Shown here in pieces: positions 8,838 to 54,714 of a DNA stretch of 59,097 nucleotides. Position 1 is the stretch's first letter, and every line of letters starts with the position of its first letter. Made by a program: the position numbers and the translations under genes. The stretch covers positions 1 to 59,097 of the forward strand of contig CAZBYY010000001.1 in the NCBI GenBank assembly GCA_964495855.1, written 5' to 3'. The notes beneath the pieces are model-generated. The model saw only the letters and a program-made list of their open reading frames with translations, made no database searches and was not told the origin of the DNA. The DNA comes from an uncultured Acidobacterium sp. Its GTDB lineage: Bacteria; Acidobacteriota; Vicinamibacteria; Vicinamibacterales; UBA2999.

Positions 8838-10208
8838 ATGTCTACCGGAACTGTTTGGGATCAGGTGCTCAGTCGCATCGAGGATCAAGTCGGAAAACAC
8901 AGTTTTTCGACCTGGTTTAAGCCGACGTCCCTCCTGGCTGATGGCGGACAAAGCCTGTCGATCCGTGTGCCAAACCCGTTGTTTGTCGAGTGGCTTCCCA
9001 AGCATTACTCCGTGGTTTTGGCTGAGGCGCTCCGCGACGTCGGCAGGCCAGACGTCAAATTGCTCTTCATTCCAGACGGCAGCGCGGCGGCGGCCTCGGA
9101 AGCGAGTGCGACGAATCGGGCGCCGGCGCTCATCACACGAGAGGCCTCCGACGCGCGCGGGGGTGCCGAGAGTGTTGAGGAAGCGCCTCGTGCCGGCAGC
9201 CTGATTCCTCGTTACACCTTCGACACGTTCATCGTAGGGCCGTCGAATCAATTCGCACACGCCGCCTGCCGGGCGGTTGCGGAGACGCCGTCGCGGTCGT
9301 ACAACCCGCTGTTCATTCACGGGGGCGTCGGCCTCGGCAAGACCCATTTGATGCACGCCATCGGCCATTACGTGGTCCAGCACCATCCAGGGCTCGTGCT
9401 GACTTACATCTCGTCCGAGCGATTCATGAACGAGATGATCAACGCCGTCCGCTTCGACCGCATCCTGGATTTCAGATCGCGTTATCGCAGCGTGGACGTC
9501 TTGCTCGTCGATGACATCCAGTTTGTGTCGGGCAAAGAGGGCACCCAGAACGAGTTTTTTCACACGTTCAACGCGCTGCACGACGCGCAAAAACAGATCG
9601 TCATCAGCAGCGATCGCCCTCCCCATGAAATTCCCGCCCTGGAAGAACGTTTACGCTCGCGATTCGAGTGGGGGCTGATCGCCGACATCCAGACGCCGGA
9701 CGTCGAGACGAAAGCCGCGATTCTCAAGCGGAAAGCCGAAGAAGAAGGCGTGCCGCTGCCGAATGACGTGGCCATGCACATGGCGAGCCGCATCAAGTCC
9801 AACGTGCGCGAACTCGAAGGCTCGTTGATCCGCTTGATCGCATACTCATCGCTCACGGCAAAGCCACTCACGATCGAGCTGGCGCATGAAGTCCTGCGCA
9901 ACGTACTCGACCATGATGAACGGGCCGTGACGATCGAACAGATCCAGAAGTACGTAGCGGACTTCTATCACTTGAAGTTGAACGAGCTGAAGTCCCGCAA
10001 TAATTCAAAGTCGGTCGCCATGCCGCGACAGGTGGCGATGTATCTGTGCAAGACCCTCACGCACGCATCGCTGCCGGAGATTGGCCGCAGCTTTGGGGGC
10101 AAGCACCACTCGACCGTAATTCACTCCATCAAGAAGGTTGAGAAACTCCGTCAGAAGCACGGAGACTTCGATAAACAGGTCGCAAACCTGATCGAAGGCC
10201 TGAAATAG
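8838..10208 (+). CDS. dnaA: Chromosomal replication initiator protein DnaA
   Basis: 456-aa ORF starting with ATG. AAA+ Walker A is NPLFIHGGVGLGKTHLMHAIG. Box VII/sensor regions are present. The C-terminal DNA-binding helix is GGKHHSTVIHSIKKVE. Confidence 0.97.
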   Translation: MSTGTVWDQVLSRIEDQVGKHSFSTWFKPTSLLADGGQSLSIRVPNPLFVEWLPKHYSVVLAEALRDVGRPDVKLLFIPDGSAAAASEASATNRAPALITREASDARGGAESVEEAPRAGSLIPRYTFDTFIVGPSNQFAHAACRAVAETPSRSYNPLFIHGGVGLGKTHLMHAIGHYVVQHHPGLVLTYISSERFMNEMINAVRFDRILDFRSRYRSVDVLLVDDIQFVSGKEGTQNEFFHTFNALHDAQKQIVISSDRPPHEIPALEERLRSRFEWGLIADIQTPDVETKAAILKRKAEEEGVPLPNDVAMHMASRIKSNVRELEGSLIRLIAYSSLTAKPLTIELAHEVLRNVLDHDERAVTIEQIQKYVADFYHLKLNELKSRNNSKSVAMPRQVAMYLCKTLTHASLPEIGRSFGGKHHSTVIHSIKKVEKLRQKHGDFDKQVANLIEGLK

Positions 10209-26857: not shown

Positions 26858-26903
26858 TCCACTAGAATAATCCGACGGGCGGATGGAAAACCGCCACTCC
26901 CAT

Positions 26904-28190
26904 ATGCTTGATGCGAATTTCGTTCGTGACAACCTCGACGTCGTCAAAGCCGCGATGGCCAATCGCGGCATGGACGTCACGGCGGAACTGCAGGCGTTTG
27001 CCACTGCCGAGTCCACTCGGCGGCGGCTGATCCAGGAGAGCGAGTCGCTCAAGCGCGAGCAGAACGCGTCGGGCGAACTGGTGGCCCGCGCGAAGAAACA
27101 AGGCGAGGACGTCTCGCACCTGTTCGAGGCGAACAAGCAGCGGGGCCAGAAGATCAAGCAGCTCGAGGCCGAGCTGGATCGCGTCGAGCGCGAGCGCAAC
27201 GCGATTCTCGAAACCCTCCCGAACCTTCCGGATGCGAGCGTGCCGGTTGGCAAGAGCGCCGCAGACAACGTCGTCGTTCGCACGTGGGGCGAGCCACGCG
27301 CGTTCGACTTCGAACCCAAGGCGCACTGGGACCTCGGTCCCGAGCTCGGCGTGATTGATTTCGAGCGTGCCACCAAGATTTCCGGCGCCCGCTTTGCGGT
27401 CCTCATGGGCGCCGGCGCGCAGCTCGAGCGAGCGTTGATCAACTTCATGCTCAACCTCCACACGACCGAGCACGGCTATACGGAAGTCGAGCCTCCGTTC
27501 CTCGTATCGTCGTCCACGTTGTATGGGACCGGCCAACTGCCGAAGTTCGAACAGGACCTGTTCAAGATTGCGGGCGAGTGGGATCTGTTCCTGATCCCGA
27601 CGGCCGAAGTCCCGGTGACGAATCTGTATCGCGGCGAAATCGTGGACGGCCGGCAGTTGCCGATGAAATACACGGCGTATACGCCGTGCTTCCGCAGCGA
27701 AGCCGGCTCATACGGGTCGGACGTCCGCGGGCTGATCCGGCAGCATCAGTTCGACAAGGTCGAGCTCGTGAAGTTTGCGTCGCCGCAGACGTCGTACGAC
27801 GAACTCGAAAGCCTCACGGCGAATGCGGAGCGCGTGCTGCAGTTGCTCGGTCTGCCATATCGGACGGTGGTGCTGTGCACGGGCGACATGGGGTTTTCTG
27901 CCGCGAAGACCTACGACATCGAGGTGTGGCTGCCGAGCCAGGAGACGTACCGGGAAATCTCGTCGTGCTCGAACTGCGACGCGTTCCAGGCGCGTCGCGC
28001 GAACATCAAGTTCCGCCCGGACGGCACCGGCAAGGCCGAGCATGTGCACACGTTGAACGGTTCCGGCCTGGCGGTTGGTCGAACGTTGATTGCGATTCTC
28101 GAGAACTACCAGCAGAAGGACGGATCAGTGGTGATTCCGGACGTGCTGCGCCCGTTCATGAACGGGAAGGAAAAGATCTCGCGATCTTGA
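26904..28190 (+). CDS. serS: Seryl-tRNA synthetase
   Basis: Tracked ORF 26883..28190. ATG 26904 gives [12 protein letters not shown], the canonical SerS start. A coiled-coil arm and class II motifs are present ([27 protein letters not shown]). Confidence 0.95.
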
Positions 28191-28218: not shown

Positions 28219-28308
28219 TGGCGGAGAGGAAGGGATTCGAACCCCTGGAACCCGTGAAGGTTCAACGGTTTTCAAGACCGCCGCTTTCGACCGCTCAGCC
28301 ACCTCTCC
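28219..28308 (-). tRNA. tRNA-Ser (anticodon UGA), CCA encoded
   Basis: Hand fold of GGAGAGGTGGCTGAGCGGTCGAAAGCGGCGGTCTTGAAAACCGTTGAACCTTCACGGGTTCCAGGGGTTCGAATCCCTTCCTCTCCGCCA. It has a 7-bp acceptor stem, a 3-bp D stem, anticodon loop CT-TGA-AA, a long variable arm (GAACC/GGTTC) and a TTCGAAT T-loop. Confidence 0.93.
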
Positions 28309-33461: not shown

Positions 33462-34562
33462 ATGCACTGTAAGCATTTCGGCGTGTGCGGCGGCTGTACG
33501 CTGCCTGGTGTCCCGTACGCCGAACAACTCGAAGGGAAGCGCGCGCGGCTGTCGAGTCTGCTCGGCATGTCCGTTCCGGCGCTGGTTCCGTCTCCGAAAG
33601 AATCCGCGTTTCGCAGCAAGGTCGCCTTCGTGTTCGGCGGCGGCGTGATGGGGCACTACGCCCTCAGGTCGCAGAAGGTGATTCGCATCGAGGAGTGTCC
33701 CGTCCACAACGAGCGCGGCAACGCCATCGCGTTTGCGCTTCGCGACCGGCTGATGCGGATCCCGGACGGCATCCTGCGCCACATCTTGATCCGGACGACT
33801 GATGACGGCCGAGAGGCGTCGGCAATGCTCGTCGTCCGGCGGAACGACAAAGTCCTGCGTGCACCGGTGAAGAAGTTCCTCGCATCGGCCGATCGACCCG
33901 AAGGGTTCTTCGTCAACATCCACGACAAGCCCGGCCCCTACATGGTTGGGGATGAGACGATCAAGATCGACGGCCGGAGCCACGTGAAGGAAGTGGTCGA
34001 AGGCGTGTCCTACCTGGTCTCACCAACAGCGTTCTTCCAAACCAATGTCGGGGCCGCGACCAGGCTGGTCAGGCATGTGGTGCAGGAGGTGGGAGCGGCG
34101 AGGCGAGTGCTTGATTTGTACTGCGGCAGCGGACTCTTTTCGCTGCAACTCGCGAAGGCCGGCGCGATGGTCACCGGCATCGAGGAAAATCGCCAGGCGG
34201 TCGCCGACGCGGAAGGCAACATGCGGCTGAACAGGCTGCCGGCCGAGCGCGCGCGATTCTTCGCAGCGCGCGTCGAAGACGCGCTCGAACGGATGTCCAG
34301 GGATCCGTGGGACGCCGTTGTGCTCGACCCGCCACGGCAAGGCTGCCCGCCTCGGGTGCTGGCCACCATCTTTGGCAAGATGCGCCCGCCTCGTGTCGTC
34401 TATGTGTCGTGTAATCCGGAGGCGCTTGCGAGTGAGCTGCCGGTGATCCTGAAGAGCGGCTATCGAGTGACGCGGGTGCAGCCGGTTGACATGTTCCCCC
34501 ACACCGAGCACATTGAGACGGTGATCGTCTTCGAACCACAGAGGCGCGAGCAGCTTGCTTAA
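33462..34562 (+). CDS. TrmA/RlmD-family RNA (uracil-5)-methyltransferase with an N-terminal Cys cluster
   Basis: 366-aa ORF. MHCKHFGVCGGC plus a later ECPVH fits the 4-Cys Fe-S pattern of RumA-type enzymes. The SAM motif is VLDLYCGSGLFSL. The C-terminal motifs VVLDPPRQG and YVSCNP are present. Confidence 0.85.
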   Translation: MHCKHFGVCGGCTLPGVPYAEQLEGKRARLSSLLGMSVPALVPSPKESAFRSKVAFVFGGGVMGHYALRSQKVIRIEECPVHNERGNAIAFALRDRLMRIPDGILRHILIRTTDDGREASAMLVVRRNDKVLRAPVKKFLASADRPEGFFVNIHDKPGPYMVGDETIKIDGRSHVKEVVEGVSYLVSPTAFFQTNVGAATRLVRHVVQEVGAARRVLDLYCGSGLFSLQLAKAGAMVTGIEENRQAVADAEGNMRLNRLPAERARFFAARVEDALERMSRDPWDAVVLDPPRQGCPPRVLATIFGKMRPPRVVYVSCNPEALASELPVILKSGYRVTRVQPVDMFPHTEHIETVIVFEPQRREQLA

Positions 34563-34572
34563 AGCCGCGCGC

Positions 34573-36567
34573 ATGGTCGTCATCGTCTCGACGGTGGCGG
34601 CGGCGTTGTTCGAGTCCTATCTCGCAACGCAGTACCACCCGGCAATTTTCTGGCTCTCGCTGATCGGGTTCGCCGTGCTTGCCGGCGTCGGCGAACGTCT
34701 TCGCCCGTTGGCCTTGCCCACGCTGATGGCGGCGGCGTACGTGACGCCTGGGATCCTGATTGCGCTGGATCCGGCCAAGCAGGCCGATTTTGGACTCGAC
34801 ATCGTGTGGGTGCTGCCGCTGCTCGGCTTGTCGCTGTCCGGCCGCACGGCTGACTGGTCGGTGCCGCCGCGCTGGCAATGGCCCCTCGTGACATGGTCGC
34901 TGGTTGTCGCGGTCGCGTGGCCGATCGTATTCCTGCGCGAGGTGGACTTCGCGCCGTGGATCCTGCAGCTGCAGCGCGTGTCGAATACCAGCGGCGGCTT
35001 CAGCCCTGCGTTCGTGTCGCAGAACATCACGTACTTTGTCCTGCTGCACAACGCCGGCATCCTGTTCATCGACGCGCTGTGCCGATGGTTTGCCACTGAC
35101 CCGGCCGCATTTCGGAAACAGATTCTCGTGCCGATGGCCATCACCGCACTCGTGGCCGCGGTGACGGCCTTCTACCAGGGTTTTGTCGACCTCGGCTTTC
35201 TTCAGCAAAAGTTCTGGACCTACATGATTCGCGCGGCCGGCACCCTCGGCGACCCGAACAAGTTCGGCGCCGTCACCGGTTTCTGGACGATTGGCGGGAT
35301 CCTTCTTGCTCGGCGCATGTCGAATCCATGGTCGCTGATCGTCGCGGCGTCGTCGGTGGCGACCGGTGTCGGCGGTGTATGGCTGTCTGGTTCACGCACG
35401 GGACTGGCAGCGGTCATCGTCAGCCTCACCTGGAGCGCGTGCGCCGCCCTGTCTTACGCATGGTCGAACCGGCGCGGAGCGCCGATCAACCTGACACGAG
35501 CCGCCGCGTTCCTCGCGGTGGCCGCCGTCCTTGCGGCGCTGATGGTCGGCGTCCTTCAGCGATCATCCACCCATACGATCGTTGCGCGCGGAACGCTTGG
35601 CTACCTGCCGTTCTTTGGCGATCGCGGCATTGCGGAGAGCGCCAACGAATTGCTCTGGGAGCGCTTTGGCTACGGGCTGGCGGCGATCGAAATGGTGAAG
35701 GAGCATCCGATTGACGGCATTGGGATCGGGATGTTCCACGCGCTGGTCATCGACTACGGCAAGATCCACGGCAAGTTCCTGCCGACGGACAATGCGCAGA
35801 GCTGGTTCCGGCACGTCATCGCGGAATCGGGACTCGTCGGCAGCATGCCGATGCTGTGGTGGTCCGTCGTGTTCCTCCTGACCATGTTCGCCCGATCCAC
35901 CGGCGACCGGCTCACCATCGGCATGCTGCGTGCCGTACTCCTCGGTTTTGCTACGGCGTCAATTTTCGGCATGCCGGCACAATCGATCGCGATCGTCATG
36001 ACCTTCTGGGTGTTCGCGTTCTGGCTGCTTCTCGAATCCGGACCCATCGAGCCTGCGTCGAAGCCCTGGACGACCCTGGCGATCGCCGCCACTGTCGCGA
36101 TCGTCGTGCTGAATGCCGGCGCAACGACGGTCGACGCATTCGGCAGCTTGCGCCCGCTCGAACGCGCCAAGCGATGGGACTGGTATTACCGTTACGGCTG
36201 GGTACAGCCCGACGACGTAGAAAAAGATCCTGGAGGCAATCCCGTCGGGCGCCGCTGGACGATGAAGAAGTCGCTCGCGCTCATCCCGGTGAAGGGCCGC
36301 GCGTTGAAGTTGGCGGCATGGGTCGACCATCCGGACAGCAGCGTGAAACCCGTGCACACGCGTGTGTGGGCCGACGGCGTGCTGGTGTTCGAGGGAGACT
36401 TGCGGCGCGGGACACCGCTGATGATGGATCTGCCGGCGAAGCCGGGCGAGAAGTACCTGGTTCTCGAGACAGAAATCGATCGCGTGTTCCGGCCCAGCGA
36501 CTTCAATCCGGCGAGCCGGGACCGGCGCGAACTGGGGCTGTCGGTTCGCGATTGGGTGTGGGAGTAG
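34573..36567 (+). CDS. O-antigen ligase (Wzy_C)-like polytopic membrane protein with a C-terminal soluble extension
   Basis: Tracked ORF 34555..36567 (TTG start). The first ATG is at 34573. It has many hydrophobic segments and Wzy_C-like motifs (WLSGSRTGLAAVIV, TDNAQSWFRHVIAESGLVG). The C-terminal ~150 aa are hydrophilic. Confidence 0.65.
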   Translation: MVVIVSTVAAALFESYLATQYHPAIFWLSLIGFAVLAGVGERLRPLALPTLMAAAYVTPGILIALDPAKQADFGLDIVWVLPLLGLSLSGRTADWSVPPRWQWPLVTWSLVVAVAWPIVFLREVDFAPWILQLQRVSNTSGGFSPAFVSQNITYFVLLHNAGILFIDALCRWFATDPAAFRKQILVPMAITALVAAVTAFYQGFVDLGFLQQKFWTYMIRAAGTLGDPNKFGAVTGFWTIGGILLARRMSNPWSLIVAASSVATGVGGVWLSGSRTGLAAVIVSLTWSACAALSYAWSNRRGAPINLTRAAAFLAVAAVLAALMVGVLQRSSTHTIVARGTLGYLPFFGDRGIAESANELLWERFGYGLAAIEMVKEHPIDGIGIGMFHALVIDYGKIHGKFLPTDNAQSWFRHVIAESGLVGSMPMLWWSVVFLLTMFARSTGDRLTIGMLRAVLLGFATASIFGMPAQSIAIVMTFWVFAFWLLLESGPIEPASKPWTTLAIAATVAIVVLNAGATTVDAFGSLRPLERAKRWDWYYRYGWVQPDDVEKDPGGNPVGRRWTMKKSLALIPVKGRALKLAAWVDHPDSSVKPVHTRVWADGVLVFEGDLRRGTPLMMDLPAKPGEKYLVLETEIDRVFRPSDFNPASRDRRELGLSVRDWVWE

Positions 36568-38013: not shown

Positions 38014-38441
38014 TCGACGCCGTCGATCAGCTCATCGTGAACTTCAACAGGCGAACGCTGGATCTTCCGGACAACCTGTTTGATCGCAAGACGCAGTTCG
38101 TGATCAATGGCGAGTCGTTTGAATCGTTGCTGAGCGCGGCGCCGAACGATCCGCTCGTGTTGATGCTGTCGCGTGGTCCCGCCGGTTATCGCTTCACCAT
38201 GAAAGCGTTGCAACACGCGATTCCCGACGCTGCGCTCGAACGCGGCGAAGTCAGCGGTGATTCCACCAAGGTGGCGACCACGGTGTGGTTGTCTGGAGGA
38301 TTGCGAGGCACCGGCGAGCGTGTCCACGTGCTCGCAACGGTCGCCTTGCGGCTGAACGCAGCGGGAGCCGTCGACGTCGCCGAGGCCAGCCTCGCCCTGG
38401 ACCAGCTCGAACGGATCCGCGCCGCCCGCCTCAGGCCGTAG
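37992..38441 (+). CDS. Hypothetical protein (possibly an NTF2-like fold)
   Basis: Tracked ORF 37944..38441. ATG 37992 (MGPAQSLIDAVDQL) is the preferred start. Composition is balanced, whereas the antisense alternative 37674..38525 is Arg/Ser-rich junk. The family call is a guess. Confidence 0.5.
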   Translation: MGPAQSLIDAVDQLIVNFNRRTLDLPDNLFDRKTQFVINGESFESLLSAAPNDPLVLMLSRGPAGYRFTMKALQHAIPDAALERGEVSGDSTKVATTVWLSGGLRGTGERVHVLATVALRLNAAGAVDVAEASLALDQLERIRAARLRP

Positions 38442-39099
38442 GCGCGTCCGGCTCGTCGGGCAGCTGCAACGCTTCGCGCACGAACATCTTTTCCGGGAGT
38501 CCGCCGAGGATCTCGATCGTCTCATTGACGATCGTCTTCGGCACCCCGGTGACGCGATACTTGCGGCTCAGATCCATGAACTCCGTCGCTTCGATCGCAT
38601 CCGCGGTGATGTTCGGATTCGCCGCTGCCATCTTGTGTGCGAGGACGACCGCCCTCGGGCAGTGCGGTCACGTGGGCGTGGAAAAGACCTGGATGTGCGT
38701 CGGCTTGTCGACCGCCTGCACCCATGCCATCGTTTCCGGATCGAGGTCGATCTTGCCGGTGCCGGCGACGATGATCGCTTCCACAAGACCGACGAACTCG
38801 TAGCCGGTCGGCGCGCCGTACATCCGCATGCGCGTGTCGACGCCGTTGCTCAAGATGACGATGGCCGGTGCCTTGTCGATGTTGTACTTGGCCTTGTCCT
38901 CGGTATCGAGGACGAAGTTCTTTTCGACGATCGTCACCTTGTCGTTCAGCGACGCGATCTCACCGACGATCTGCCGGGCGACATCGCCGCTCTCGGATCC
39001 GCCGAACGTCTGCGTGAACAGCACGAGCTCGACGGGGAGCGTGATCGACGACAGATGTTGCTTGAGTGTCGCCTCGTCTTGCGGAGACAGCAGGCCCAT
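38431..39099 (-). CDS. Two-domain glutaredoxin-like protein disulfide oxidoreductase with in-frame TGA at the CxxC position (candidate selenoprotein, U-P-H-C); 222 codons
   Basis: Tracked ORFs 38668..39099 (ends ...HIQVFSTPT-TGA) and 38431..38631 are in the same frame, separated only by TGA plus 12 sense codons (PHCPRAVVLAHK). The joined protein reads ...VFSTPT[TGA]PHCPRAVVLAHKMAAANPNITADAIEATEFMDLSRKYRVTGVPKTIVNE...GGLPEKMF. This matches the TPTCPxCP...VP(K) pattern of PDO/AhpF-N-terminal-domain proteins. Confidence 0.75.
38622..38667 (-). promoter_or_regulatory. SECIS-like stem-loop immediately 3' of the in-frame UGA
   Basis: The mRNA reads UGA-CCG-CA-CUGCC-CGAGG-GCGGUCGU-CCUCG-CACACAAGAU-GGCAG-CGG. 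The apical stem is CGAGG/CCUCG and begins 10 nt after the UGA. The loop contains GGUC. Lower pairings are CUGCC/GGCAG and CCG/CGG. Folded by hand only. Confidence 0.5.
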
Positions 39100-39112: not shown

Positions 39113-39601
39113 TTAGAACTTGAACAGATCGTCGAAGGCCTTCTTCGCGCCGCTGGGTTCTTTGGGATTGCCGCCCTTCTCGGCGACAGCGGTGGTCGTC
39201 TCGCGCTCGATCGTCGTCCGAATGCTGAAGTGCTGGCACTCGTTGGCCGTGTCCTTGGGGGACACGCGCGCCTGGAGCTTGATGGCGCATTCGAAGCTGG
39301 CGCCCGGATCGAAGTTCACGCATTGGATGCAGGCGCGCAACGCCACCTGGCATTTCGGGCATGCGCTGCGGGACATCACCTGCGGGTCGACGATCGTTCC
39401 GCAACGCGCGCATCTGGCGACCTGACGGGAGCCCATCATTCGCGGGTTGCGAGCGCCTTCAGAGGAGATGCGCCGGGCCCCGGCGGGCGCGCCCGGTTCG
39501 CGCTCGGGCTTGCCGCTACTCGCCGGACGCGGACCTTGCGGACGTCGGTCGCGGTCATCGTCCTGGTAGCCGCGCTGCCGGTATTTGCGGTCGTCGCTCA
39601 A
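39113..39601 (-). CDS. Cys-rich zinc-ribbon-like hypothetical protein with a basic, disordered N-terminus
   Basis: 162-aa ORF with a TTG start and no clear SD. Cys pairs are CARCG...CPKC...CIQC, plus two further Cys. Its stop is 13 nt upstream of the PDO-like gene start, so co-transcription is likely. Confidence 0.6.
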   Translation of the reverse strand: MSDDRKYRQRGYQDDDRDRRPQGPRPASSGKPEREPGAPAGARRISSEGARNPRMMGSRQVARCARCGTIVDPQVMSRSACPKCQVALRACIQCVNFDPGASFECAIKLQARVSPKDTANECQHFSIRTTIERETTTAVAEKGGNPKEPSGAKKAFDDLFKF

Positions 39602-42055: not shown

Positions 42056-42715
42056 ATGTCGCAGGTATTCCCAAAAAGCGCCAACGCGTGGTCGAAGGCC
42101 AGCATTGCTGGCGTCATCGCGTTCATCGCTCTACTCGGTTCGACGATTCTCGCGCTGCAGCGTTCCGATTTCGTGACCACTGCGAATCGCTTCGTCGAAC
42201 AACCGGTTCAATTCAGCCATCGGCACCACAACGGAGGCATCGGCATCGACTGCCGGTATTGCCACACCTCTGTTGAGGTGTCGCCCTCGGCCGGCATTCC
42301 GCCGACGAAGACGTGCATCAACTGCCACTCGCAGATCTGGAACACCAGCCCGTACCTCGAGCCGGTGCGCGCCAGTTTCCGCGAGGACAAGCCGCTGCGC
42401 TGGGTCCGCGTGCACGACCTGCCGGACTTCGTCTATTTCAACCACAGCATCCATGTCCGCAAGGGCGTCGGCTGCGAAACGTGTCATGGCCGCGTCGATC
42501 GGATGCCGCTGATGGTGCAGAAGAACTCGCTGCAGATGGAGTGGTGTCTCGACTGTCACCGCGATCCGTCCCGCTACCTGCGGCCGCGCGATCAGATCAC
42601 CACGATGGGCTATGTGCCGGCCAAGGCGCAGTCGGAGCTCGGGCCGGAGCTGATGCGCGAATACAAGGTCGCTGACGTGCAGCACCTCACGAGCTGCTCG
42701 GTCTGCCACAGATAA
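42056..42715 (+). CDS. actA: Alternative Complex III subunit ActA, pentaheme cytochrome c
   Basis: 219-aa ORF with an N-terminal TM and five CxxCH motifs (CRYCH, CINCH, CETCH, CLDCH, CSVCH). It is the first gene of the act cluster. Confidence 0.9.
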   Translation: MSQVFPKSANAWSKASIAGVIAFIALLGSTILALQRSDFVTTANRFVEQPVQFSHRHHNGGIGIDCRYCHTSVEVSPSAGIPPTKTCINCHSQIWNTSPYLEPVRASFREDKPLRWVRVHDLPDFVYFNHSIHVRKGVGCETCHGRVDRMPLMVQKNSLQMEWCLDCHRDPSRYLRPRDQITTMGYVPAKAQSELGPELMREYKVADVQHLTSCSVCHR

Positions 42716-42717
42716 AC

Positions 42718-45774
<3,057 letters not shown>

Positions 45775-45779
45775 CCGAC

Positions 45780-47162
45780 ATGGATCCAAACATCCACAAA
45801 CCCATGGCCCTGCAGGAAGTGCCCGTGATTCTTCCGGGGCACGACTTCGAGACCGTCACCGAGACGATCGCGGAAATTCCGCTGTCGAAGCGGTTCCCGC
45901 TCGGCTGGATCGGGCTGCTCCTCGTTTCGCTGACGCTGTTCGGCGTGCTCCACATGGCGCTCGGTTATCTCGTGATAACCGGCATCGGCATCTTCGGCAC
46001 GAACCAGCCGGTCGGCTGGGCCTTCCCGATCATCAACTTCGTCTGGTGGATCGGCATCGGCCACGCGGGCACGCTCATCTCGGCCATCCTGCTGCTCTTC
46101 AAGCAGCAGTGGCGCATGTCGATCAGCCGTTTTGCCGAAGCGATGACGATCTTCGCGGTGGCGTGCGCGGCGATCTTCCCCGTGTTCCACACCGGCCGTC
46201 CGTGGCTCGCCGCCTACTGGCTCTTCCCGTATCCCAACACGATGGGGTTGTGGCCGCAGTTCAAGAGCCCGCTGATCTGGGACGTGTTCGCGGTCTCGAC
46301 CTACGCGACGGTGTCGATCGTGTTCTGGTACATCGGCATGATTCCCGACCTCGGCACGCTGCGCGATCGCGCCACGTCGAAAATCAAGGCGCGCATCTAC
46401 GGCATCTTCTCGCTCGGCTGGCGCGGTTCGGCGCGTCACTGGCATCGCTATGAAGTCGCGTCGCTGATTCTTGCGGGCCTGTCGACGCCGCTGGTGCTGT
46501 CGGTCCACACGGTCGTCAGCTTCGACTTCGCGGTGTCGCTGATCCCGGGCTGGCACGCGACGATCTTCCCGCCCTACTTCGTCGCCGGCGCGATCTATGC
46601 CGGCTTCGCGATGGTGTTGACGCTGGCGATTCCGGTGCGCCGCTTCTACGGCATGGAAAGCCTGATCACCATGCGGCACATCGACAACATGGCCAAGATC
46701 ACGCTGGCTACCGGCTTGATCGTCGGCTACGGCTACACCATGGAAGCGTTCTTCGCGTGGTACAGCGGCAGCCCGCACGAGCGCTTCATGATGTGGAACC
46801 GCATGACCGGGCAGTACGCATGGTCGTACTGGGCGCTCATCGCCATCAACATCGGCATGGTGCAGTTGTTGTGGTTCAAGAAGATTCGCCAGAACACCAC
46901 CGTGCTGTTCATCATGTCGCTGATCGTCGGCGTCGGCATGTGGCTCGAGCGCTTCGTGATCGTGGTCACGTCGCTCGCCAACGACTTCCTGCCGTCGTCG
47001 TGGGCGCACTATACGCCGACGCGATGGGACTACCTGCTCTACTTGGGCACCTTCGGGTTGTTCCTGACGGCGTTCCTGCTGTTCCTGCGCTTCATCCCGA
47101 TGATTTCGATGTTTGAAGTCAAGACGCTGCTGCCGCAGGCCAAGGTGGAGGCGAAGCACTGA
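45780..47162 (+). CDS. actC: Alternative Complex III subunit ActC (NrfD/PsrC-like quinol-interacting membrane subunit)
   Basis: Tracked ORF 45519..47162. ATG 45780 (MDPNIHKPM...) lies 6 nt after the actB stop. The polytopic NrfD-like sequence includes WAFPIINFVWWIGIGHAGTLISA. Confidence 0.9.
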   Translation: MDPNIHKPMALQEVPVILPGHDFETVTETIAEIPLSKRFPLGWIGLLLVSLTLFGVLHMALGYLVITGIGIFGTNQPVGWAFPIINFVWWIGIGHAGTLISAILLLFKQQWRMSISRFAEAMTIFAVACAAIFPVFHTGRPWLAAYWLFPYPNTMGLWPQFKSPLIWDVFAVSTYATVSIVFWYIGMIPDLGTLRDRATSKIKARIYGIFSLGWRGSARHWHRYEVASLILAGLSTPLVLSVHTVVSFDFAVSLIPGWHATIFPPYFVAGAIYAGFAMVLTLAIPVRRFYGMESLITMRHIDNMAKITLATGLIVGYGYTMEAFFAWYSGSPHERFMMWNRMTGQYAWSYWALIAINIGMVQLLWFKKIRQNTTVLFIMSLIVGVGMWLERFVIVVTSLANDFLPSSWAHYTPTRWDYLLYLGTFGLFLTAFLLFLRFIPMISMFEVKTLLPQAKVEAKH

Positions 47163-47707
47163 TGTCTCACGCGGTCGAAACCACGAACGCAATGCACGGC
47201 GTGATGGCCGAATACGACAGCGGCCAGGCGCTCGTCGAGGCCACGCGCAAGACAATGGCGCAGGGCTACACCCGCGTCGAGGCCTACTCGCCGGTGCCGA
47301 TCGAGGAGCTCAACGACCTGATTCACAAGAAGCGCACGGTGCTTCCGAAGCTGGTGTTGTGCGGCGGCCTGACCGGGATGGCGACGGGCTTTGCGCTGCA
47401 GTACTGGGCGTCGGTACTGGAATATCCGATGAACATCGGCGGCCGCCCTCTGGCGAGCTGGACGACCTTCATTGTCCCGTCGTACGAGCTGACGATCCTG
47501 TTTTCGGCGCTGACGGCGGCGATCGGCATGATCGCGCTGAGCGGACTGCCGCAGCCGTATCACCCGGTGTTCAACGTCGAGCGGTTCTCGCTGGCCAGCT
47601 CCGACAAGTTCTTCCTCGTGATCGAATCGACCGATCCGAAGTTCGCGGACGCCGCGACGTTCCTGCAGGGCACGGGCGCGAAGGGAGTCTATGACGTTGC
47701 GGAATAA
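47162..47707 (+). CDS. actD: Alternative Complex III subunit ActD (DUF3341)
   Basis: 181-aa ORF whose start overlaps the actC stop (TGATG). It has a soluble N-domain plus two TM segments, typical of ActD. Confidence 0.85.
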   Translation: MSHAVETTNAMHGVMAEYDSGQALVEATRKTMAQGYTRVEAYSPVPIEELNDLIHKKRTVLPKLVLCGGLTGMATGFALQYWASVLEYPMNIGGRPLASWTTFIVPSYELTILFSALTAAIGMIALSGLPQPYHPVFNVERFSLASSDKFFLVIESTDPKFADAATFLQGTGAKGVYDVAE

Positions 47708-48371
47708 CGCCACCGAGACACGGCGGCACGGAGGCCGATTCTTGCTGGCCTCGATCGTGGCGCTGTCATTCGCCGCCGGTTGCCGCCAGGACATGCACGA
47801 CACGCCGCGCTATGAGGCGTTCGAAGCGAGTTCGACGTTCCAGGACAACCGTTCGTCGCGGAACCTGCCGGCCAACACCGTTGCGCGCGGATGGCTGCGC
47901 GAGGACGAGGCGCTCTACACCGGCAAGGTGAACGGCCAGTTCGTTGACGAATTCCCGTTCCCGATCGGCCACGACGAGCTCGTGCGCGGCCAGCAGCGCT
48001 TCAACATCTACTGCACGCCCTGCCACAGCCGGCTCGGCGACGGCAAGGGCATGGTCGTGCAGCGTGGATTGCGGCAGGCCGCGTCGTTCCACCAGGACCG
48101 CTTGCGCCAGGAGAAGAACGGCTACTTCTTCGACGTGATCACCAACGGCTTTGGCGCGATGCCCGACTACGCGACGCAGATCCCTGTGCGCGATCGCTGG
48201 TTGATCGTCGCCTACGTCCGCACGCTGCAACTGAGCCAGCACGCGTCGGTCAGCGACGTACCGGCGGATCATCGCGGCGATCTCGATCGCACTGCCAACT
48301 CCGCCGCTGAACCTGGCGCGGCTACGGCAGGCCAGGCCGGCGCGCCGTCAAGTCCAGCGGAGAAGAAATAG
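47691..48371 (+). CDS. actE: Alternative Complex III subunit ActE, monoheme cytochrome c lipoprotein
   Basis: 226-aa ORF with a lipobox (LSFAAGC), a single CTPCH and a downstream Met ligand region (GFGAMPDY). Confidence 0.85.
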   Translation: MTLRNNATETRRHGGRFLLASIVALSFAAGCRQDMHDTPRYEAFEASSTFQDNRSSRNLPANTVARGWLREDEALYTGKVNGQFVDEFPFPIGHDELVRGQQRFNIYCTPCHSRLGDGKGMVVQRGLRQAASFHQDRLRQEKNGYFFDVITNGFGAMPDYATQIPVRDRWLIVAYVRTLQLSQHASVSDVPADHRGDLDRTANSAAEPGAATAGQAGAPSSPAEKK

Positions 48372-49570
48372 TGTCGACGACGACAGTGAACTCGGAAACG
48401 TTCGTAGCGTCCGGCACCCCGCTGCCGGGCATGAAGCAGTTCGGCATGATTGCCGGCGTGCTCGGCGTGGTGCTCGCCGTCGCCGGCTTCTTCATGTCGG
48501 GCGTGGATCGCTTCTTCCAGGCGTACCTGGTCGCCTACACCTTCTGGATGGGCGTGATCATGGGCGCGATGGCGCTGCTCATGGTGCAGCACCTGTCCGG
48601 CGGCGTGTGGGGCATCATCCTGCGCCGCCCGTTCGAAGCGGCGGTGCGCACGCTGCCGATCATGACGGTCCTGTTCATCCCGATCGTGTTCGGGATGCAC
48701 TCGCTCTATGAATGGGCGCGCCCCGAAGCGGCGAATGATGCGGGTATCCAGGCGAAGGCGCTCTACCTGAACACGCCGTTCTTCCTCGTCCGCCAGGCAA
48801 TCTACTTCGCGCTGTGGAACGCGATCGGCTTCCTGCTCACCAAGTGGTCGGCGGAGCACGATCGCACCGGCGATCCCGCGTTGCTCGACAAGCTGTCGCG
48901 GCTGTCGGGCGCCGGCCTGCTGATCTACGGCCTGACGATGACGTTTGCGGCGGTGGACTGGACGATGTCGGTGAACCCGCACTGGTTCTCGACGATCTGG
49001 GGCATGCTCTACGTCGGCGGCCAGGGCCTCTCGGCGTTTGCGTTCGGCATCTGCGTGCTCGTGATGCTGGCGCAGACCGCGCCGATGAACAAGGTTCTCA
49101 CGAACAACCATTTCCACGACCTCGGCAAGCTGCTGTTTGCGTTCCTGATGTTGTGGGCCTACCTGTCGTTCTCGCAGTTCCTGATCATCTGGTCGGCGAA
49201 CCTGCCGGAAGAAATTCCTCACTACCTGAATCGCTGGGAGAACACGTGGAAGTTCCTCAGCATCTTCATTGTCGTCGGCCACTTCATGGTGCCGTATGCG
49301 CTGCTGTTGTCGCGCGACATCAAGCGCAACTACGGTAAGCTGCGGCTGATTGCGACGTGGCTGCTGGGCGCGCGCGTGGCCGAGTATTTCTGGCACGTGG
49401 CGCCTGAGCTGCACAAGGACGGCTTTACGCTGTCGCTGCTCGACGTGGCGCTGCCGCTCGCGCTCGGCGGCATCTTCATTTCGTTGTTCGTTTCGCAGCT
49501 CGGTGGCCGCTCGCTCCTGCCGGTCAACGATCCTGCTTTAGACAAGGCGCTGCATCACCATGTCCACTGA
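48371..49570 (+). CDS. actF: Alternative Complex III subunit ActF (second NrfD-like membrane subunit)
   Basis: 399-aa polytopic ORF. Its GTG start overlaps the actE TAG (TAGTG). Confidence 0.85.
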   Translation: MSTTTVNSETFVASGTPLPGMKQFGMIAGVLGVVLAVAGFFMSGVDRFFQAYLVAYTFWMGVIMGAMALLMVQHLSGGVWGIILRRPFEAAVRTLPIMTVLFIPIVFGMHSLYEWARPEAANDAGIQAKALYLNTPFFLVRQAIYFALWNAIGFLLTKWSAEHDRTGDPALLDKLSRLSGAGLLIYGLTMTFAAVDWTMSVNPHWFSTIWGMLYVGGQGLSAFAFGICVLVMLAQTAPMNKVLTNNHFHDLGKLLFAFLMLWAYLSFSQFLIIWSANLPEEIPHYLNRWENTWKFLSIFIVVGHFMVPYALLLSRDIKRNYGKLRLIATWLLGARVAEYFWHVAPELHKDGFTLSLLDVALPLALGGIFISLFVSQLGGRSLLPVNDPALDKALHHHVH

Positions 49571-50039
49571 GCACAACGGCTTCGAGCTGGAATACGGACC
49601 GACGCCGTCAGGCGCGAAGTACGAGCACACCGACATCGATGCGTCGATCGGCTACAAATTCGCCCTGTGGCTGACGGTCGCGATGTTCGTCGGTCTCGGC
49701 ATCGTCTACGGCACGTTCTGGATGTTCGAAGGACGCGCGCGCGCGGCCAACGCGGCGGCGCAGAAGTATCCGCTCGCCGTCGGGCAGACGAAGGAGCCGC
49801 CCGCGCCGAACCTGCAGAAGCAGTCGTTCAAGGACGTCTACCTGTTGCGGCAGTCGGAAGCGGCGACGCTTGGCACCTACGGATGGGTCGACAAGGATGC
49901 CGGCGTCACGCACATCCCGATCGATCGCGCGATCGAGGTGATGCTGCAGAAGGGATTTCCGGCGCGTGCTGCAGGCGGCAACGCGCTGAACGTCGTGACG
50001 CAGGACAGTTCGTCGGGTCGTACGATCGTTCCACGCTGA
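49560..50039 (+). CDS. Hypothetical single-pass membrane protein between actF and sco (possible accessory subunit)
   Basis: 159-aa ORF. Its ATG overlaps the actF 3' end by 11 nt. It has one TM (FALWLTVAMFVGLGIVYGTFWMF) followed by a ~100-aa soluble domain. Confidence 0.6.
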   Translation: MSTEHNGFELEYGPTPSGAKYEHTDIDASIGYKFALWLTVAMFVGLGIVYGTFWMFEGRARAANAAAQKYPLAVGQTKEPPAPNLQKQSFKDVYLLRQSEAATLGTYGWVDKDAGVTHIPIDRAIEVMLQKGFPARAAGGNALNVVTQDSSSGRTIVPR

Positions 50040-50067
50040 CGCGGGGCATCACGAATAGAAGCACGTC

Positions 50068-50913
50068 ATGAAAGCAACACATCTTCGAACGGCAGTGGTG
50101 GCGATGAGCGCGGCGCTCATGTCGGCGGTCGTGTCGGCGCAGGGGAATGCGCCTGGCGTGATGCCGGATCCCACGCTGCCGTCGAACAAAGTGCCGACCG
50201 TGTTGAGCCGCGTGTCGTTCGAGCAGCGGTTGAACGAGCAGCTCCCGCTCGACTTGCCGTTCAAGGACGAGCAGGGCCGCGACGTCAAGCTTGGCGATTA
50301 CTTCGGCCGCAAGCCGGTCGTGCTGACGTTCGTGTATTACGAGTGCCCGATGCTCTGCACCGAAGTGCTGAACGGGCTCGAGAGCGCGTTGCGCGTGCTG
50401 AACGAATCGATCGGCCGCGAGTTCGACGTGATCACCGTGAGCTTCGATCCGAAGGAAACGCCGGTGCTCGCGCTCGGCAAGAAGAAGGCGTATCTCGAAC
50501 GCTACAAGCGGGCCGAAGCGGAGATGGGCTGGCATTTCCTGACGGGCCAGCAGCCGTCGATCGACGCGCTGACGAAGGCGGCGGGGTTCAACTTCACGTG
50601 GGATGAGGACTCGCACCAGTTCGCGCACCCGAGCGGCATCGTCGTGGTGACGCCGCAGGGCAAGGTGTCGCGGTACTTCTTCGGCATCGATTACGCGCCG
50701 CGCGACGTCAAGTTCGCGCTGGTCGAATCGTCGAACGAGAAGATCGGATCGCTGGCCGACCGGCTGTTGCTCTACTGCTATCACTACGATCCCACGAAGG
50801 GGAACTACGGGTTCGTGGCGATGCGGGCGGTGCGCGTCGGCGGGGCGCTGACGATCCTGGCGCTGGTTGGTTTTGTGTTTGTCTCGTTGCGGAAAGAGGC
50901 GAACGGACAGTAG
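50068..50913 (+). CDS. SCO1/SenC-family copper chaperone
   Basis: 281-aa ORF with a signal/anchor, a thioredoxin-fold CxxxC motif (YYECPMLCT), a conserved His region (FAHPSGIVVV) and an extra C-terminal TM. Confidence 0.88.
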   Translation: MKATHLRTAVVAMSAALMSAVVSAQGNAPGVMPDPTLPSNKVPTVLSRVSFEQRLNEQLPLDLPFKDEQGRDVKLGDYFGRKPVVLTFVYYECPMLCTEVLNGLESALRVLNESIGREFDVITVSFDPKETPVLALGKKKAYLERYKRAEAEMGWHFLTGQQPSIDALTKAAGFNFTWDEDSHQFAHPSGIVVVTPQGKVSRYFFGIDYAPRDVKFALVESSNEKIGSLADRLLLYCYHYDPTKGNYGFVAMRAVRVGGALTILALVGFVFVSLRKEANGQ

Positions 50914-50916
50914 CTA

Positions 50917-51951
50917 ATGACAATATTCGGCATACCCATCTTCCCGGAGCAGGCATCGGCGTTCGCCAAGGACGTCGACGCGCTCTATTTCTTCATCCTC
51001 GCGACGTGCGCGTTCTTCGCGACCGGCGTGTCGGTCGCGGTCGTCATCCTCGGGCTGAAGTATCGCAAGACGCACGAGGGGCAGATCGGCGCCCGCATCG
51101 AAGGCAACCTGCCGCTCGAGCTGCTGTGGAGCGTGATCCCGACGATCATCGCGATGTTCATGTTCGGCTGGGGCGCCTCGGTCTTCTACCACTTACGGCG
51201 GCCGCCAGACGAAGCGCTGCATCTGTATGCGGTGGGCAAGCAGTGGATGTGGAAGTTCCAGCACCTCGAAGGGCAGCGCGAGATCAACGAATTGCACGTG
51301 CCGGCGGGCCGGCCGATCAAGATCACGATCAGCTCTGAAGACGTGATTCACAGCCTCTACTTCCCGTCGTTCCGCGTGAAGTACGACGCGATCCCGGGCC
51401 GCTACACCGAACTGTGGTTCGAGGCACAGAAGCCGGGCACGTACCACATCTTCTGCGCTGAGTACTGCGGCACGAATCACTCGCAGATGATCGGCATGGT
51501 GACGGTGATGGAGCCGGCGCAATACCAGGCGTGGCTGCAGGGCGGCGGGGCCGAAGGCACGCTGGCGCAGCGCGGCGCCAAGCTGTTCAACGATCTGGCC
51601 TGTTCATCGTGCCACCTCGACAGCGGCCAAGGCCGCGGCCCGTCGCTCAAGGACATCGTCGGGACGACGGTGGAATTCCAAGATGGATCGAGCGCGGTGG
51701 TCGACGAAGCGTACCTGCGCGAGTCGATCCTCACCTCGCAGGCGAAGATCGTGAAGGGCTTCCAGCCGCTGATGCCCACCTTCCAGGGGCTCGTCAGCGA
51801 GGAGAATCTCGTCGCCCTGATCGAGCACGTGAAGTCGCTGTCACCAAAGGCCACCACCGCGGCGGCGCCGATGCAGCCGCAGCCCGCGAGCCAGACCGGC
51901 GGCTCGCCGGTCAACGAACTCAAGCCGCGCGTTCAGACGGGAAAGAAGTAA
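50917..51951 (+). CDS. coxB: Cytochrome c oxidase subunit II with a fused C-terminal cytochrome c domain (caa3 type)
   Basis: 344-aa ORF. The CuA site is HSLYFPSF...FCAEYCGTNHSQM. The C-terminal heme motif is CSSCH. Confidence 0.95.
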   Translation: MTIFGIPIFPEQASAFAKDVDALYFFILATCAFFATGVSVAVVILGLKYRKTHEGQIGARIEGNLPLELLWSVIPTIIAMFMFGWGASVFYHLRRPPDEALHLYAVGKQWMWKFQHLEGQREINELHVPAGRPIKITISSEDVIHSLYFPSFRVKYDAIPGRYTELWFEAQKPGTYHIFCAEYCGTNHSQMIGMVTVMEPAQYQAWLQGGGAEGTLAQRGAKLFNDLACSSCHLDSGQGRGPSLKDIVGTTVEFQDGSSAVVDEAYLRESILTSQAKIVKGFQPLMPTFQGLVSEENLVALIEHVKSLSPKATTAAAPMQPQPASQTGGSPVNELKPRVQTGKK

Positions 51952-51954
51952 GCC

Positions 51955-53580
51955 ATGCTAGACACGCTCAAGATTCCCGAGCACCACTACCTGAATAACG
52001 GCCACGGCCTGAAGTCGTGGTTGCTGACGAAGGACCACAAGCGGATCGCGATCATGTATTTGATCTCGATCTCGGTGATGTTCGTGCTCGGCGGCCTGTT
52101 CGCGATGGGCATCCGCCTCGAGCTGGCCACGCCGCAGGGCGACTTCGTCAGCGCCGACACCTACAACAAGTTCTTCACGATGCACGGCGTGATCATGGTG
52201 TTCTTCTTCCTGATCCCGTCGATTCCCGCGGTGCTCGGCAACTTCCTGATCCCGCCGATGATCGGCGCCAAGGACCTGGCCTTTCCGCGCATCAACCTGC
52301 TGAGCCTCTACATCTACTGGATCGGCGGCATCTTCACGCTCGCGGCGATGGTCGCCGGCGGCGTCGACACGGGATGGACGTTCTATACGCCGTATAGCGC
52401 GGCGGCGTCGAACACGCACGTGATTCCGACGGCGCTCGGCATTTTCATCACCGGGTTTTCGTCGATCCTCACCGGTCTGAACTTCATCGTCACGATTCAC
52501 CGCATGCGCGCGCCGGGCATGGGGTGGTTCCGCCTGCCGCTGTTTGTGTGGGCGCACTATGCGACCAGCCTGATCCAGGTGCTTGGCACGCCGGTTGTCG
52601 CGATCACGATCGTGATGGTGTTCGTGGAGCGCGCGTTCGGCTTCGGCATTTTCGATCCGACGCGTGGTGGCGACCCGGTGCTGTTCCAGCACCTGTTCTG
52701 GTTCTATTCACACCCGGCCGTCTACATCATGATCCTGCCGGCGCTGGGCGTGATGTCGGAGCTCATCTCGACGTTCTCGCGGAAGATGATCTTCGGCTAC
52801 AGCTTCGTCGCGTTCTCGTCGCTGGCGATTGCGGTGTTCGGCTTCATCGTGTGGGCGCACCACATGTTCGTCGCCGGCATCTCGACCTACGCGGCGATGG
52901 TGTTCTCGTTCCTCAGCTTCTCGGTCGCGATTCCGTCGGCGGTGAAGGTGTTCAACTGGACGGCGACACTCTACAAGGGCGCGATCTCGTTCGAGACGCC
53001 GATGCTCTACGCCTACGGCTTCATGGGGCTGTTCCTGATCGGCGGCTTGACGGGCCTGTTCCTCGCCACGCTCGGCATGGACATCCACCTGCACGACACG
53101 TACTTCGTCGTCGCGCACTTCCACTACATCATGGTCGGCGGCGCGATCATGGGCTATCAGGGCGGCCTTCACTATTGGTGGCCGAAGATGACGGGCCGGA
53201 TGTATTCGGAGTTCTTCTCGCGCATCAGCGCGATCCTGGTGTTCGTCGGGTTCAACCTGACCTTCCTGCCGCAGTTCGTCGTCGGCTACCTCGGCATGCC
53301 GCGCCGCTATCACGCGTATCCGGATGAGTTCCAGGTGCTGAACGTGATGTCGTCGGCGGGGGCGAGTGTGCTGGGCCTCGGCTACGCGCTGCCGGTGCTG
53401 TATTTCCTCTACTCGCTGAAGAAGGGCCCGGTCGCGGGGCCGAACCCGTGGGGCGCGACGACGCTCGAGTGGACGACGCAGTCGCCGCCGCTGACGGAGA
53501 ACTTCCTCGAGGTTCCCGAAGTTGTGGGCGAGCCCTACGAGTACGAGCACGTCGTCGCCAAGGAGAGCCATCTTGTCTAA
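51955..53580 (+). CDS. coxA: Cytochrome c oxidase subunit I
   Basis: 541-aa ORF with heme-copper oxidase signatures ([12 protein letters not shown]-type [37 protein letters not shown]). Confidence 0.97.
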
Positions 53581-54379
53581 CGCGGTCGCGCACGCGGGCC
53601 ACCACGATTCACACGCCGCGCACGCGCATCATCCGGCACTGCAGCATCACTTCGACACGATGGCGCAGCAGAAGGAAGCTGCGGTCATCGGCATGTGGCT
53701 GTTCCTGCTCACCGAAATCCTGTTCTTCGGCGGGCTGTTTGTCGCCTACATGATCTACCGCGTCTGGTATTTCGAGGCGTTTGCCGAAGCCAGCCGGCGC
53801 CTGAGCATCTTCTGGGGCGGCCTCAACACGGCGGTGCTGATCGGCAGTTCGCTCACGATGGCGCTCGGCGTGCGGGCGGCGCAGACGAACAACCGCAAGT
53901 GGACGGTCAACTGGCTGATCCTGACGATGTTGCTCGGCTGCGTGTTCCTTGGCGTCAAGGTGATCGAGTATCGCGACAAGTTTGCCAACTACGAGGTACC
54001 GGGCGCGTCCTATAACTGGCTGTATCACGAGCAGCACGAGGGCGGAGCCGCCGCTGAAGGCGGTGAGCACGCCGCCGGGGCAGCCGCGGAAGGCCAATCA
54101 GCGGAAGCAGCCGCGCATCACGTGAAGATGACGCCGGATCAGCTGCAGCGCACGACGCAGATCTACTTCAGCTTGTATTTCACGATGACCGGCCTGCACG
54201 CATTGCACATGATCATCGGCGTGGGCTTGATGCTCGTGATCACGTGGATGTCGTGGAAGGGCAAGTTCGACGCGGAGTACTACACGCCGGTTGAAATGGC
54301 CGGCCTCTACTGGCACTTCGTCGACATCGTCTGGATCTTCCTGTTCCCGCTGCTCTATCTCGTCGAGAGGCACATGTAA
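53573..54379 (+). CDS. coxC: Cytochrome c oxidase subunit III
   Basis: Tracked ORF 53522..54379. In-frame TTG 53573 is preceded by AAGGAG (53561-66) and overlaps the coxA stop. The subunit III core is present ([34 protein letters not shown]). Confidence 0.88.
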
Positions 54380-54714
54380 TGTCGGATCACGTTTCTCCGG
54401 TCGGCCTTTACATCACGATCTTCCTGGCCTTGATGGTGGGCACCGCGCTGACCGTCGGCGCGGCGTTCGTCAATCTCGGCGTGTTCAATTTCCCGGTGGC
54501 GATGCTGATCGCCGTGGTCAAGGCGTCGCTGGTGATCTGGTTCTTCATGCACGTGAAGTATCAGAGCCACCTCACCAAGCTGGCGATTGCGACCGGCTTG
54601 TTCTTCCTGTGCATCCTCCTCGGGGAGACACTGATCGATTACGTGTCGAAGGACAACTTCAACTTCTACACCGCGCCGCCGCCGATCGAGCAGAGCTCAG
54701 TCATCCCGAAGTAG
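54379..54714 (+). CDS. Prokaryotic cytochrome c oxidase subunit IV family protein
   Basis: 111-aa ORF with three hydrophobic segments. Its ATG overlaps the coxC TAA. The VKASLVIWFFMHVK motif is typical of COX4_pro, from recollection. Confidence 0.8.
   Translation: MSDHVSPVGLYITIFLALMVGTALTVGAAFVNLGVFNFPVAMLIAVVKASLVIWFFMHVKYQSHLTKLAIATGLFFLCILLGETLIDYVSKDNFNFYTAPPPIEQSSVIPK

Follow-up and report, generated by a model that had tools for sequence, protein, structure and literature searches.

The window analyzed here is a 59,097-nucleotide stretch of contig CAZBYY010000001.1 of an uncultured Acidobacterium sp. of the order Vicinamibacterales (GenBank assembly GCA_964495855.1, positions 1 to 59,097). 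On its minus strand lie two short open reading frames (ORFs) that very probably constitute a single gene for a selenocysteine (Sec)-containing redox enzyme (Table 1). The first ORF, of 143 amino acids, ends in ...HIQVFSTPT and is followed by a TGA at 38670-38668 (minus-strand translation). Past this triplet the same frame reads PHCPRAVVLAHK and then enters the second ORF, of 66 amino acids, whose ATG (38631-38629, encoding Met157 of the joined protein) is offset from the T of the TGA by exactly 39 nt. Positions 38431-39099 form one 222-codon frame with a single internal TGA, codon 144, and the 66-aa ORF is the C-terminal third of this predicted selenoprotein. An earlier reading of the same DNA, referred to below as the original prediction, had described the frame and the 39-nt offset in these terms, and its description proved exact on translation. 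The joined protein has one Cys (C147); U144 and C147 would therefore be its only redox pair. When a Cys was written in place of the stop, the Pfam family Thioredoxin_3 matched the joined protein across the junction (residues 135-211, E-value of 2e-18).

Table 1. Features of the predicted selenoprotein gene and its immediate surroundings, in window coordinates.
Feature	Position	Strand	Description
Complete predicted selenoprotein gene	38431..39099	minus	222 sense codons plus terminal TGA (38431-38433); basis: translation
Start codon of the predicted selenoprotein gene	39099-39097	minus	ATG
In-frame UGA, codon 144, probably read as selenocysteine	38668..38670	minus	First position of the U-P-H-C redox motif
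Cys147 codon	38659..38661	minus	Sole Cys in the protein and presumed resolving partner of Sec144
Val186-Pro187 codons	38539..38544	minus	Presumed cis-Pro loop facing the redox motif; cis conformation suggested by the fold
Candidate bacterial SECIS hairpin	38640..38657	minus	5' stem CGAGGGC (38657-38651), loop GGUC (38650-38647), 3' stem GUCCUCG (38646-38640)
66-aa ORF	38431..38631	minus	Separate gene according to gene callers; codons 157-222 of the predicted selenoprotein
Upstream gene	39113..39601	minus	162 aa, Cys-rich, zinc-ribbon-like hypothetical protein; ends 13 nt before the start codon of the predicted selenoprotein gene

A scan of species-representative genomes yielded 42 loci, all of them in metagenome-assembled genomes (MAGs) of Acidobacteriota/Vicinamibacterales type as judged by title or similarity. 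The 143-aa and 66-aa parts were in frame, contiguous and 39 nt apart in all relatives. All 40 Sec-type genes—one from the window and 39 from species-representative genomes—had TGA, never TAA or TAG, at codon 144, whereas the terminal stops of the same genes were mixed (TGA, 19; TAA, 14; TAG, 10). TGC occupied this position in the three most distant orthologues (L037-L039, approximately 55% identity) and in the Cys-form gene L043. The close Cys-form orthologues, with identities of 68-71%, are single proteins of 217-227 aa carrying the motif TPTCPHCP (P0001-P0007 and others), and the first Cys of their CxxC motif aligns with the TGA. The same holds for the first Cys of CPYC in the solved structures 1A8L and 1J08, retrieved from the PDB with phmmer, and the G-V-P-K motif, invariant in our alignment, pairs with A-V-P-K in both. 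The original prediction had expected a Cys opposite the TGA in homologous protein disulfide oxidoreductases (PDOs) and AhpF N-terminal domains; such a Cys was seen in homologues of both kinds and in 1A8L and 1J08.

The sequence beyond the TGA evolves as protein. Pairwise Nei-Gojobori estimates over 39 Sec-type genes, with synonymous divergence (dS) at about 0.9-1.0 throughout, gave a ratio of non-synonymous to synonymous divergence (dN/dS) of 0.20 upstream of the TGA (codons 1-143) and 0.15 downstream of it (codons 145-214). The downstream value was 0.16 when the codons of the hairpin described below were excluded (codons 160-214). The approximately 75 codons that follow the TGA are under purifying selection; the 78 codons singled out by the original prediction are conserved as protein, so this is not a stop that lacks conservation downstream. 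Directly after the TGA, codons 145-148 (P-H-C-P), located between it and the annotated ATG, are fixed in their amino acids yet variable at third positions, and these codons are therefore translated. Cys147 itself is invariant among relatives, its codon alternating synonymously between TGC and TGT.

These observations bear directly on one alternative—that the TGA is a real stop, and that the locus encodes a separate 143-aa single-fold protein without a redox site plus a 66-aa fragment initiated at the ATG at 38631, or the 143-aa product alone. Public annotation does call two genes, Met157 is invariant, and other genes of this genome routinely end in TGA, all of which would agree with termination. 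However, the 12 codons between TGA and ATG are conserved as protein, with synonymous changes only in the P-H-C-P stretch, and the two parts always share a frame at the same 39-nt distance, in keeping with Cys orthologues that are undivided proteins of 217-227 aa. Moreover, a free-standing 66-aa piece would be deprived of the CxxC motif and of the first strand and helix of its fold, and simple termination leaves unexplained why TGA is strict at codon 144 when the true ends of the genes are mixed. Taken together, these points make a real stop very improbable.

To the genome loci we added a metagenome scan whose search pattern encoded only T-P-T-TGA-P-H-C-P, so that the hairpin played no part in the selection. 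At least 120 metagenome contigs matched, with at least 113 distinct junction sequences from many subfamilies; among the matches listed, nearly all of the 113 distinct junction sequences encode the same split. In the pooled set of metagenome contigs, genome loci and the window, the frame remained open for at least 60 codons past the TGA in 150 of the 152 contigs that contained the true stop (median, 75 codons). The metagenome contigs L048-L167 include many other T-P-T-U-P-H-C-P subfamilies, with RAVRLA, PAVLLA, RAVSLA, RAARLA and others downstream of the motif. A pseudogene, or a sequencing or assembly error in which TGA stands for TGC or TGT, would require just a one-base change, and the window by itself is a single sequence. 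Against this, 39 independent genomes at the species level share the TGA, as do nearly all of the 113 distinct junctions among the metagenome matches listed; the downstream dN/dS is 0.15, and 150 of 152 contigs keep an open frame for 60 codons or more. The comparative data effectively refute this explanation, to which we attach next to no probability.

The joined protein (U replaced by C) is a two-thioredoxin-fold protein disulfide oxidoreductase of the TIGR02187 family. It matched the NCBIfam equivalog model TIGR02187.2, 'PDO_seleno_TRX', over residues 7-212 of 222 with a score of 229.9 bits against a cut-off of 185, and its closest solved structures by sequence in the PDB phmmer search were 1J08 and 1A8L (E-value of about 1e-34, residues 1-211). 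For structural comparison, the Cys orthologue P0003, which is 71% identical, was taken to stand in for the window protein. Its AlphaFold model comprises two thioredoxin folds (pLDDT, 93.2; pTM, 0.91) and superposes on PDOs with template modeling (TM) scores of 0.88-0.93 (0.93 to 1A8L); across PDOs and AhpF N-terminal domains together the scores span 0.8-0.93. Residue 144 sits between strand 134-140 and helix 147-160 in this model. From the N-terminal sequence, MGLLSPQDEATLK, we assume a cytoplasmic location.

Two groups of known proteins frame this assignment. Like the PDOs of Pyrococcus furiosus and P. horikoshii (1A8L, 1J08) and of Aquifex aeolicus (2AYT, 2YWM), the window protein is a free-standing polypeptide of roughly 225 aa with two thioredoxin folds, and it aligns with the PDOs at their C-terminal active site, F-x-T-P-T-C-P-Y-C-P, and at their V-P-K loop. 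The archaeal PDOs differ in having Cys where the window gene has a predicted Sec, and in a second CxxC (CQYC) within the N-terminal fold, where the window protein has S-E-S-G. With this substitution and a single Cys in the whole protein, the proposal that the N-terminal thioredoxin fold has no Cys pair, and that UxxC would be the sole redox center, stands. The N-terminal domain of AhpF (1HYU, 1ZYN, 4O5Q, 5H29) is likewise a fusion of two thioredoxin folds, of which the second carries the one CxxC, and as an electron shuttle from a thioredoxin-reductase-like flavoenzyme to a peroxiredoxin it is, by analogy, the likely functional model. AhpF proper, of approximately 520 aa, has in addition a C-terminal thioredoxin-reductase-like part binding FAD and NAD(P)H, which the 222-aa window protein does not have. 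An identity as AhpF was rejected: AhpF models match through the N-terminal domain only and far below cut-off, TIGR03140 scoring 71.5 bits against 502.9 and covering only profile positions 8-179.

We next turn to the RNA directly downstream of the UGA, where the original prediction had called for a check for a selenocysteine insertion sequence (SECIS) and where a hairpin was found at 38640-38657. With the U of the UGA numbered +1, it extends from +14 to +31 and consists of 7 bp capped by a 4-nt apical loop, GGUC, with 17 nt between the UGA and the loop. In the bacterial SECIS (bSECIS) model, an upper stem 4-16 bp long carries an apical loop of 3-9 nt, which lies 16-37 nt from the UGA and has, within its first two positions, a G with G or U after it (PMC13188914; also PMC10778597); the hairpin agrees with this model on every published criterion. 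Across 22 distinct sequences the element reads C(G/C)AGGGC-GGUC-GUCCU(C/G)G, and 154 of 154 pair cells are standard. At the second stem pair, 13 sequences have G-C and nine have C-G—a compensatory swap—and one of the 22 turns the A-U pair into G-U. Neither any of 500 shuffles nor any slid control matched the observed pairing or covariation, and RNAalifold recovered the same hairpin independently. The co-varying bases are the third positions of Pro148 (CCG/CCC) and Leu153 (CTC/CTG), both changes being synonymous. Between them, third-position entropy is zero at codons 149-152 (AGG GCG GTC GTC) in 39 species despite a dS near 1, and Arg149 is AGG and Val152 is GTC in all Sec forms.

The Cys forms provide a counterpart to this constraint. 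In L043 (3001-3672, protein P0001) the peptide RAVVLA is kept, but synonymous replacements (AGG to CGG, GTC to GTG) break the stem; the distant Cys forms are also without the hairpin. On a neighbor-joining (NJ) tree, the Cys-form genes (P0001, P0003, P0004, P0006 and P0002/P0005/P0007) nest inside the Sec clade, a topology that suggests several Sec-to-Cys conversions.

The pooled set contains 139 distinct TPT-TGA-PHCP sequences, which were compared with synonymous-codon randomizations. An apical loop of 3-9 nt that includes G22-U23 and caps an uninterrupted stem of 4 bp or more is formed by 74% of the former but by only 21% of the latter, and the mean minimum free energy (MFE) is -12.3 kcal/mol versus -9.1 kcal/mol in the randomizations. 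Many of the other pooled sequences form either a bulged version of this hairpin or one in a shifted position. In the other subfamilies among the L048-L167 contigs the register is shifted by 1 nt and loops such as CGUGC occur, with G22-U23 still in the loop.

Comparison with the SECIS of E. coli fdhF, the sequence of which we checked at 100% identity in 5413 genomes, shows that both hairpins lie within the ORF just 3' of the UGA. Their apical tetraloops are identical, GGUC, and occupy +22..+25 in fdhF as against +21..+24 here. Unlike the fdhF element, the one described here has no bulged U but a continuous 7-bp upper stem with one G-U pair, and the sequences are otherwise unrelated. Two further structures were considered. 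The MFE fold of the single window sequence (86 nt after the TGA) forms another stem, ACUGCC/GGCGGU, together with pairs that include the UGA, and did not outperform shuffled sequences (z-score, -0.28); it was rejected, being broken in nine of the 22 relatives without compensatory change, while the alternative hairpin at 38640-38657 pairs in all. A possible lower stem proposed by RNAalifold (window 38620-38661, minus strand; UGYC at +10..+13 with GGCR at +42..+45) is a weak candidate, showing one-sided changes only and an outer pair broken in four of 22 sequences, and was left out of the element.

With the TGA conserved, the downstream codons under selection, a hairpin of bSECIS type and membership in a selenoprotein family, the proposal that the TGA is read as selenocysteine in U-P-H-C is strongly supported, and we consider it very likely that UGA144 is decoded in this way within a single 222-residue redox-enzyme gene. 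Several results weigh on the other side. Searches of the 59-kb window and of 894 kb from related loci revealed neither a tRNA-Sec nor selA, selB or selD: ARAGORN found no tRNA-Sec in the window or in 168 sequences, NCBIfam and Pfam scans found none of the three genes among the approximately 40 window ORFs, and tblastn with E. coli SelA, SelB and SelD returned no match in the window or any of the loci. The covariation in the hairpin resides in a single stem pair, and the swap, for which one or two events are needed on the approximate NJ tree, probably reflects just that number of evolutionary events. Furthermore, neither a thioredoxin reductase nor a peroxiredoxin is a conserved neighbor across approximately 157 loci, and no ahpC-like neighbor was found; the physiological partner is therefore proposed from the family only.

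An Rfam scan of the window at the gathering threshold returned one tRNA only. This is the tRNA-Ser at 28219-28308 (minus strand, 90 nt), which adjoins serS (26883-28190) and is the only tRNA of the window; it was ruled out as a tRNA-Sec on account of its anticodon, UGA, where that of tRNA-Sec is UCA. A genome-wide reassignment of TGA was likewise rejected: 12 of the 34 genes called with confidence terminate at TGA, and the long housekeeping genes fit their family models from end to end with no internal TGA. We also looked in the window for a second selenoprotein, and TGA-split frames with coding-like GC content at third codon positions (GC3) on both sides were, besides this gene, only antisense artefacts.

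The UGA could also be read by a suppressor other than the Sec system—a selC* tRNA(Cys) with SelB*, or a tRNA(Sec)-like allo-tRNA—that inserts Cys or another residue and is served by the hairpin. All selC*-containing genomes reported, however, also possess a full Sec system (PMC5389517), the hairpin conforms to the canonical SelB-type SECIS and shares its GGUC loop with fdhF, and the protein belongs to a recognized selenoprotein family, with some Acidobacteriota being documented Sec users. The 59-kb window, which holds no Sec machinery genes, would be compatible with suppression, as would the allo-tRNAs of Acidobacteria, which are possible nonsense suppressors, and the selC* tRNA(Cys) found with a second selB in other phyla, for which opal suppression was shown in E. 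coli (PMC5389517). On balance we regard such a suppressor as very unlikely; if true, it would mean that Cys or another residue is inserted through non-Sec decoding in an abundant group of aerobic soil bacteria.

On the preferred interpretation, decoding as Sec, a ribosome reaching UGA144 would have the 7-bp hairpin with its GGUC loop beginning 10 nt ahead of it, and this hairpin would recruit SelB with Sec-tRNA(Sec). Selenocysteine would then be inserted in place of termination, as the fit to the bacterial SECIS model suggests. Sec144-Pro-His-Cys147 would form the only redox center, located where the first helix of the second fold begins. By analogy with related enzymes, the selenolate of Sec144 would attack a substrate disulfide, e.g., an oxidized peroxiredoxin or another protein disulfide, Cys147 would resolve the mixed selenenylsulfide, and a thioredoxin-reductase-like flavoprotein could re-reduce the Se-S bond. 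A role as a disulfide reductase or electron shuttle would be in line with the PDO and AhpF N-terminal-domain families.

The family itself is already known to hold selenoproteins. An 'AhpF N-terminal domain homologue' was listed as a selenoprotein family in 2006 for Carboxydothermus hydrogenoformans and Symbiobacterium thermophilum (PMC1794560), and the same UxxC family is listed in PMC9312934 and PMC13188914. Known examples comprise ABB15282.1 of C. hydrogenoformans and proteins of S. thermophilum and Asgard archaea, and the members are described as 'predicted with high confidence' (PMC13188914). As compared through TIGR02187 and these descriptions, the window protein shares with them a predicted Sec in the first position of UxxC, a SECIS in the ORF directly after the UGA and the existence of Cys-form homologues; like the rest of the family, it is a predicted selenoprotein. 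The hosts differ—the first members described came from anaerobic or thermophilic Firmicutes-like organisms, whereas the copy studied here comes from Acidobacteriota/Vicinamibacterales-type bacteria with genes for aerobic respiration, the window itself encoding alternative complex III (ACIII) and an aa3-type oxidase. Certain other Acidobacteriota are documented users of Sec, and a literature search on selenocysteine in Vicinamibacter or Vicinamibacterales found nothing relevant. Our finding is neither a new mechanism nor a new selenoprotein family; it is a new member of a known family, in a lineage where this family seems to be undescribed.

Its practical value lies in annotation, since the gene is split or shortened in most public records and sometimes misnamed AhpF. 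A protein search returned 3122 homologues; of the top 120, 85 terminate right after ...TPT (at a length of 143 aa in 80 cases), and 33 are full-length proteins of approximately 220 aa with TPTCPxCP. In the NCBI MAG GCA_964344505.1, which is 97% identical, the 143-aa and 66-aa parts are called separately and the 66-aa piece has a Thioredoxin_3 match. Gene callers do split or truncate the gene, as had been foreseen. JGI labels the shortened calls 'alkyl hydroperoxide reductase subunit F', a name that is not correct, because the protein has 222 aa and scores far below the TIGR03140 cut-off. Taxonomic labels may also mislead: the MAGs L002, L007 and L017, titled 'Acidimicrobiia', and L005, titled 'cyanobacterium', carry genes 81-89% identical to Vicinamibacterales/Acidobacteriota copies, and these records are probably mislabelled.

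The Sec form dominates in a large clade of Vicinamibacterales-type Acidobacteriota and, judging by the metagenome matches listed, also occurs in many other environmental lineages. If the decoding proposed here is right, members of an abundant soil order with genes for aerobic respiration would need selenium to make at least one conserved redox protein. In addition, the Sec clade with its nested Cys forms offers a clean natural data set for the study of Sec/Cys exchange and SECIS evolution.

As to the genomic surroundings, the gene for the 162-aa zinc-ribbon-like protein is the only recurrent partner found by neighborhood clustering (approximately 157 loci), and it is the same-strand upstream neighbor in 52 related loci. 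The protein matches no Pfam family and has more than 3000 homologues, nearly all named ones being 'hypothetical'; among the matches listed, the few with an organism label are assigned to Acidobacteriota. The gene may be co-transcribed with the predicted selenoprotein gene and could tentatively be viewed as an operon partner or substrate.

Elsewhere, the window carries housekeeping genes and spans the chromosomal origin region, with mnmG, mnmE, yidC, dnaA (8838-10208), dnaN, gyrB and gyrA between 2204 and 16642. An ACIII-like cluster includes a multihaem cytochrome (42056-42715), a fused molybdopterin/Fe-S subunit (42718-45774) and ActD (47162-47707); it is followed by SCO1 and subunits II, I and III of an aa3 cytochrome oxidase, a set of aerobic respiration genes occupying 42056-54714 overall. 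Finally, a 670-aa ORF at 34555-36567 (plus strand) displays coding-like GC3 and has no match in Pfam or NCBIfam; it is conserved in the 97%-identical MAG (L046), where its length and position are unchanged.

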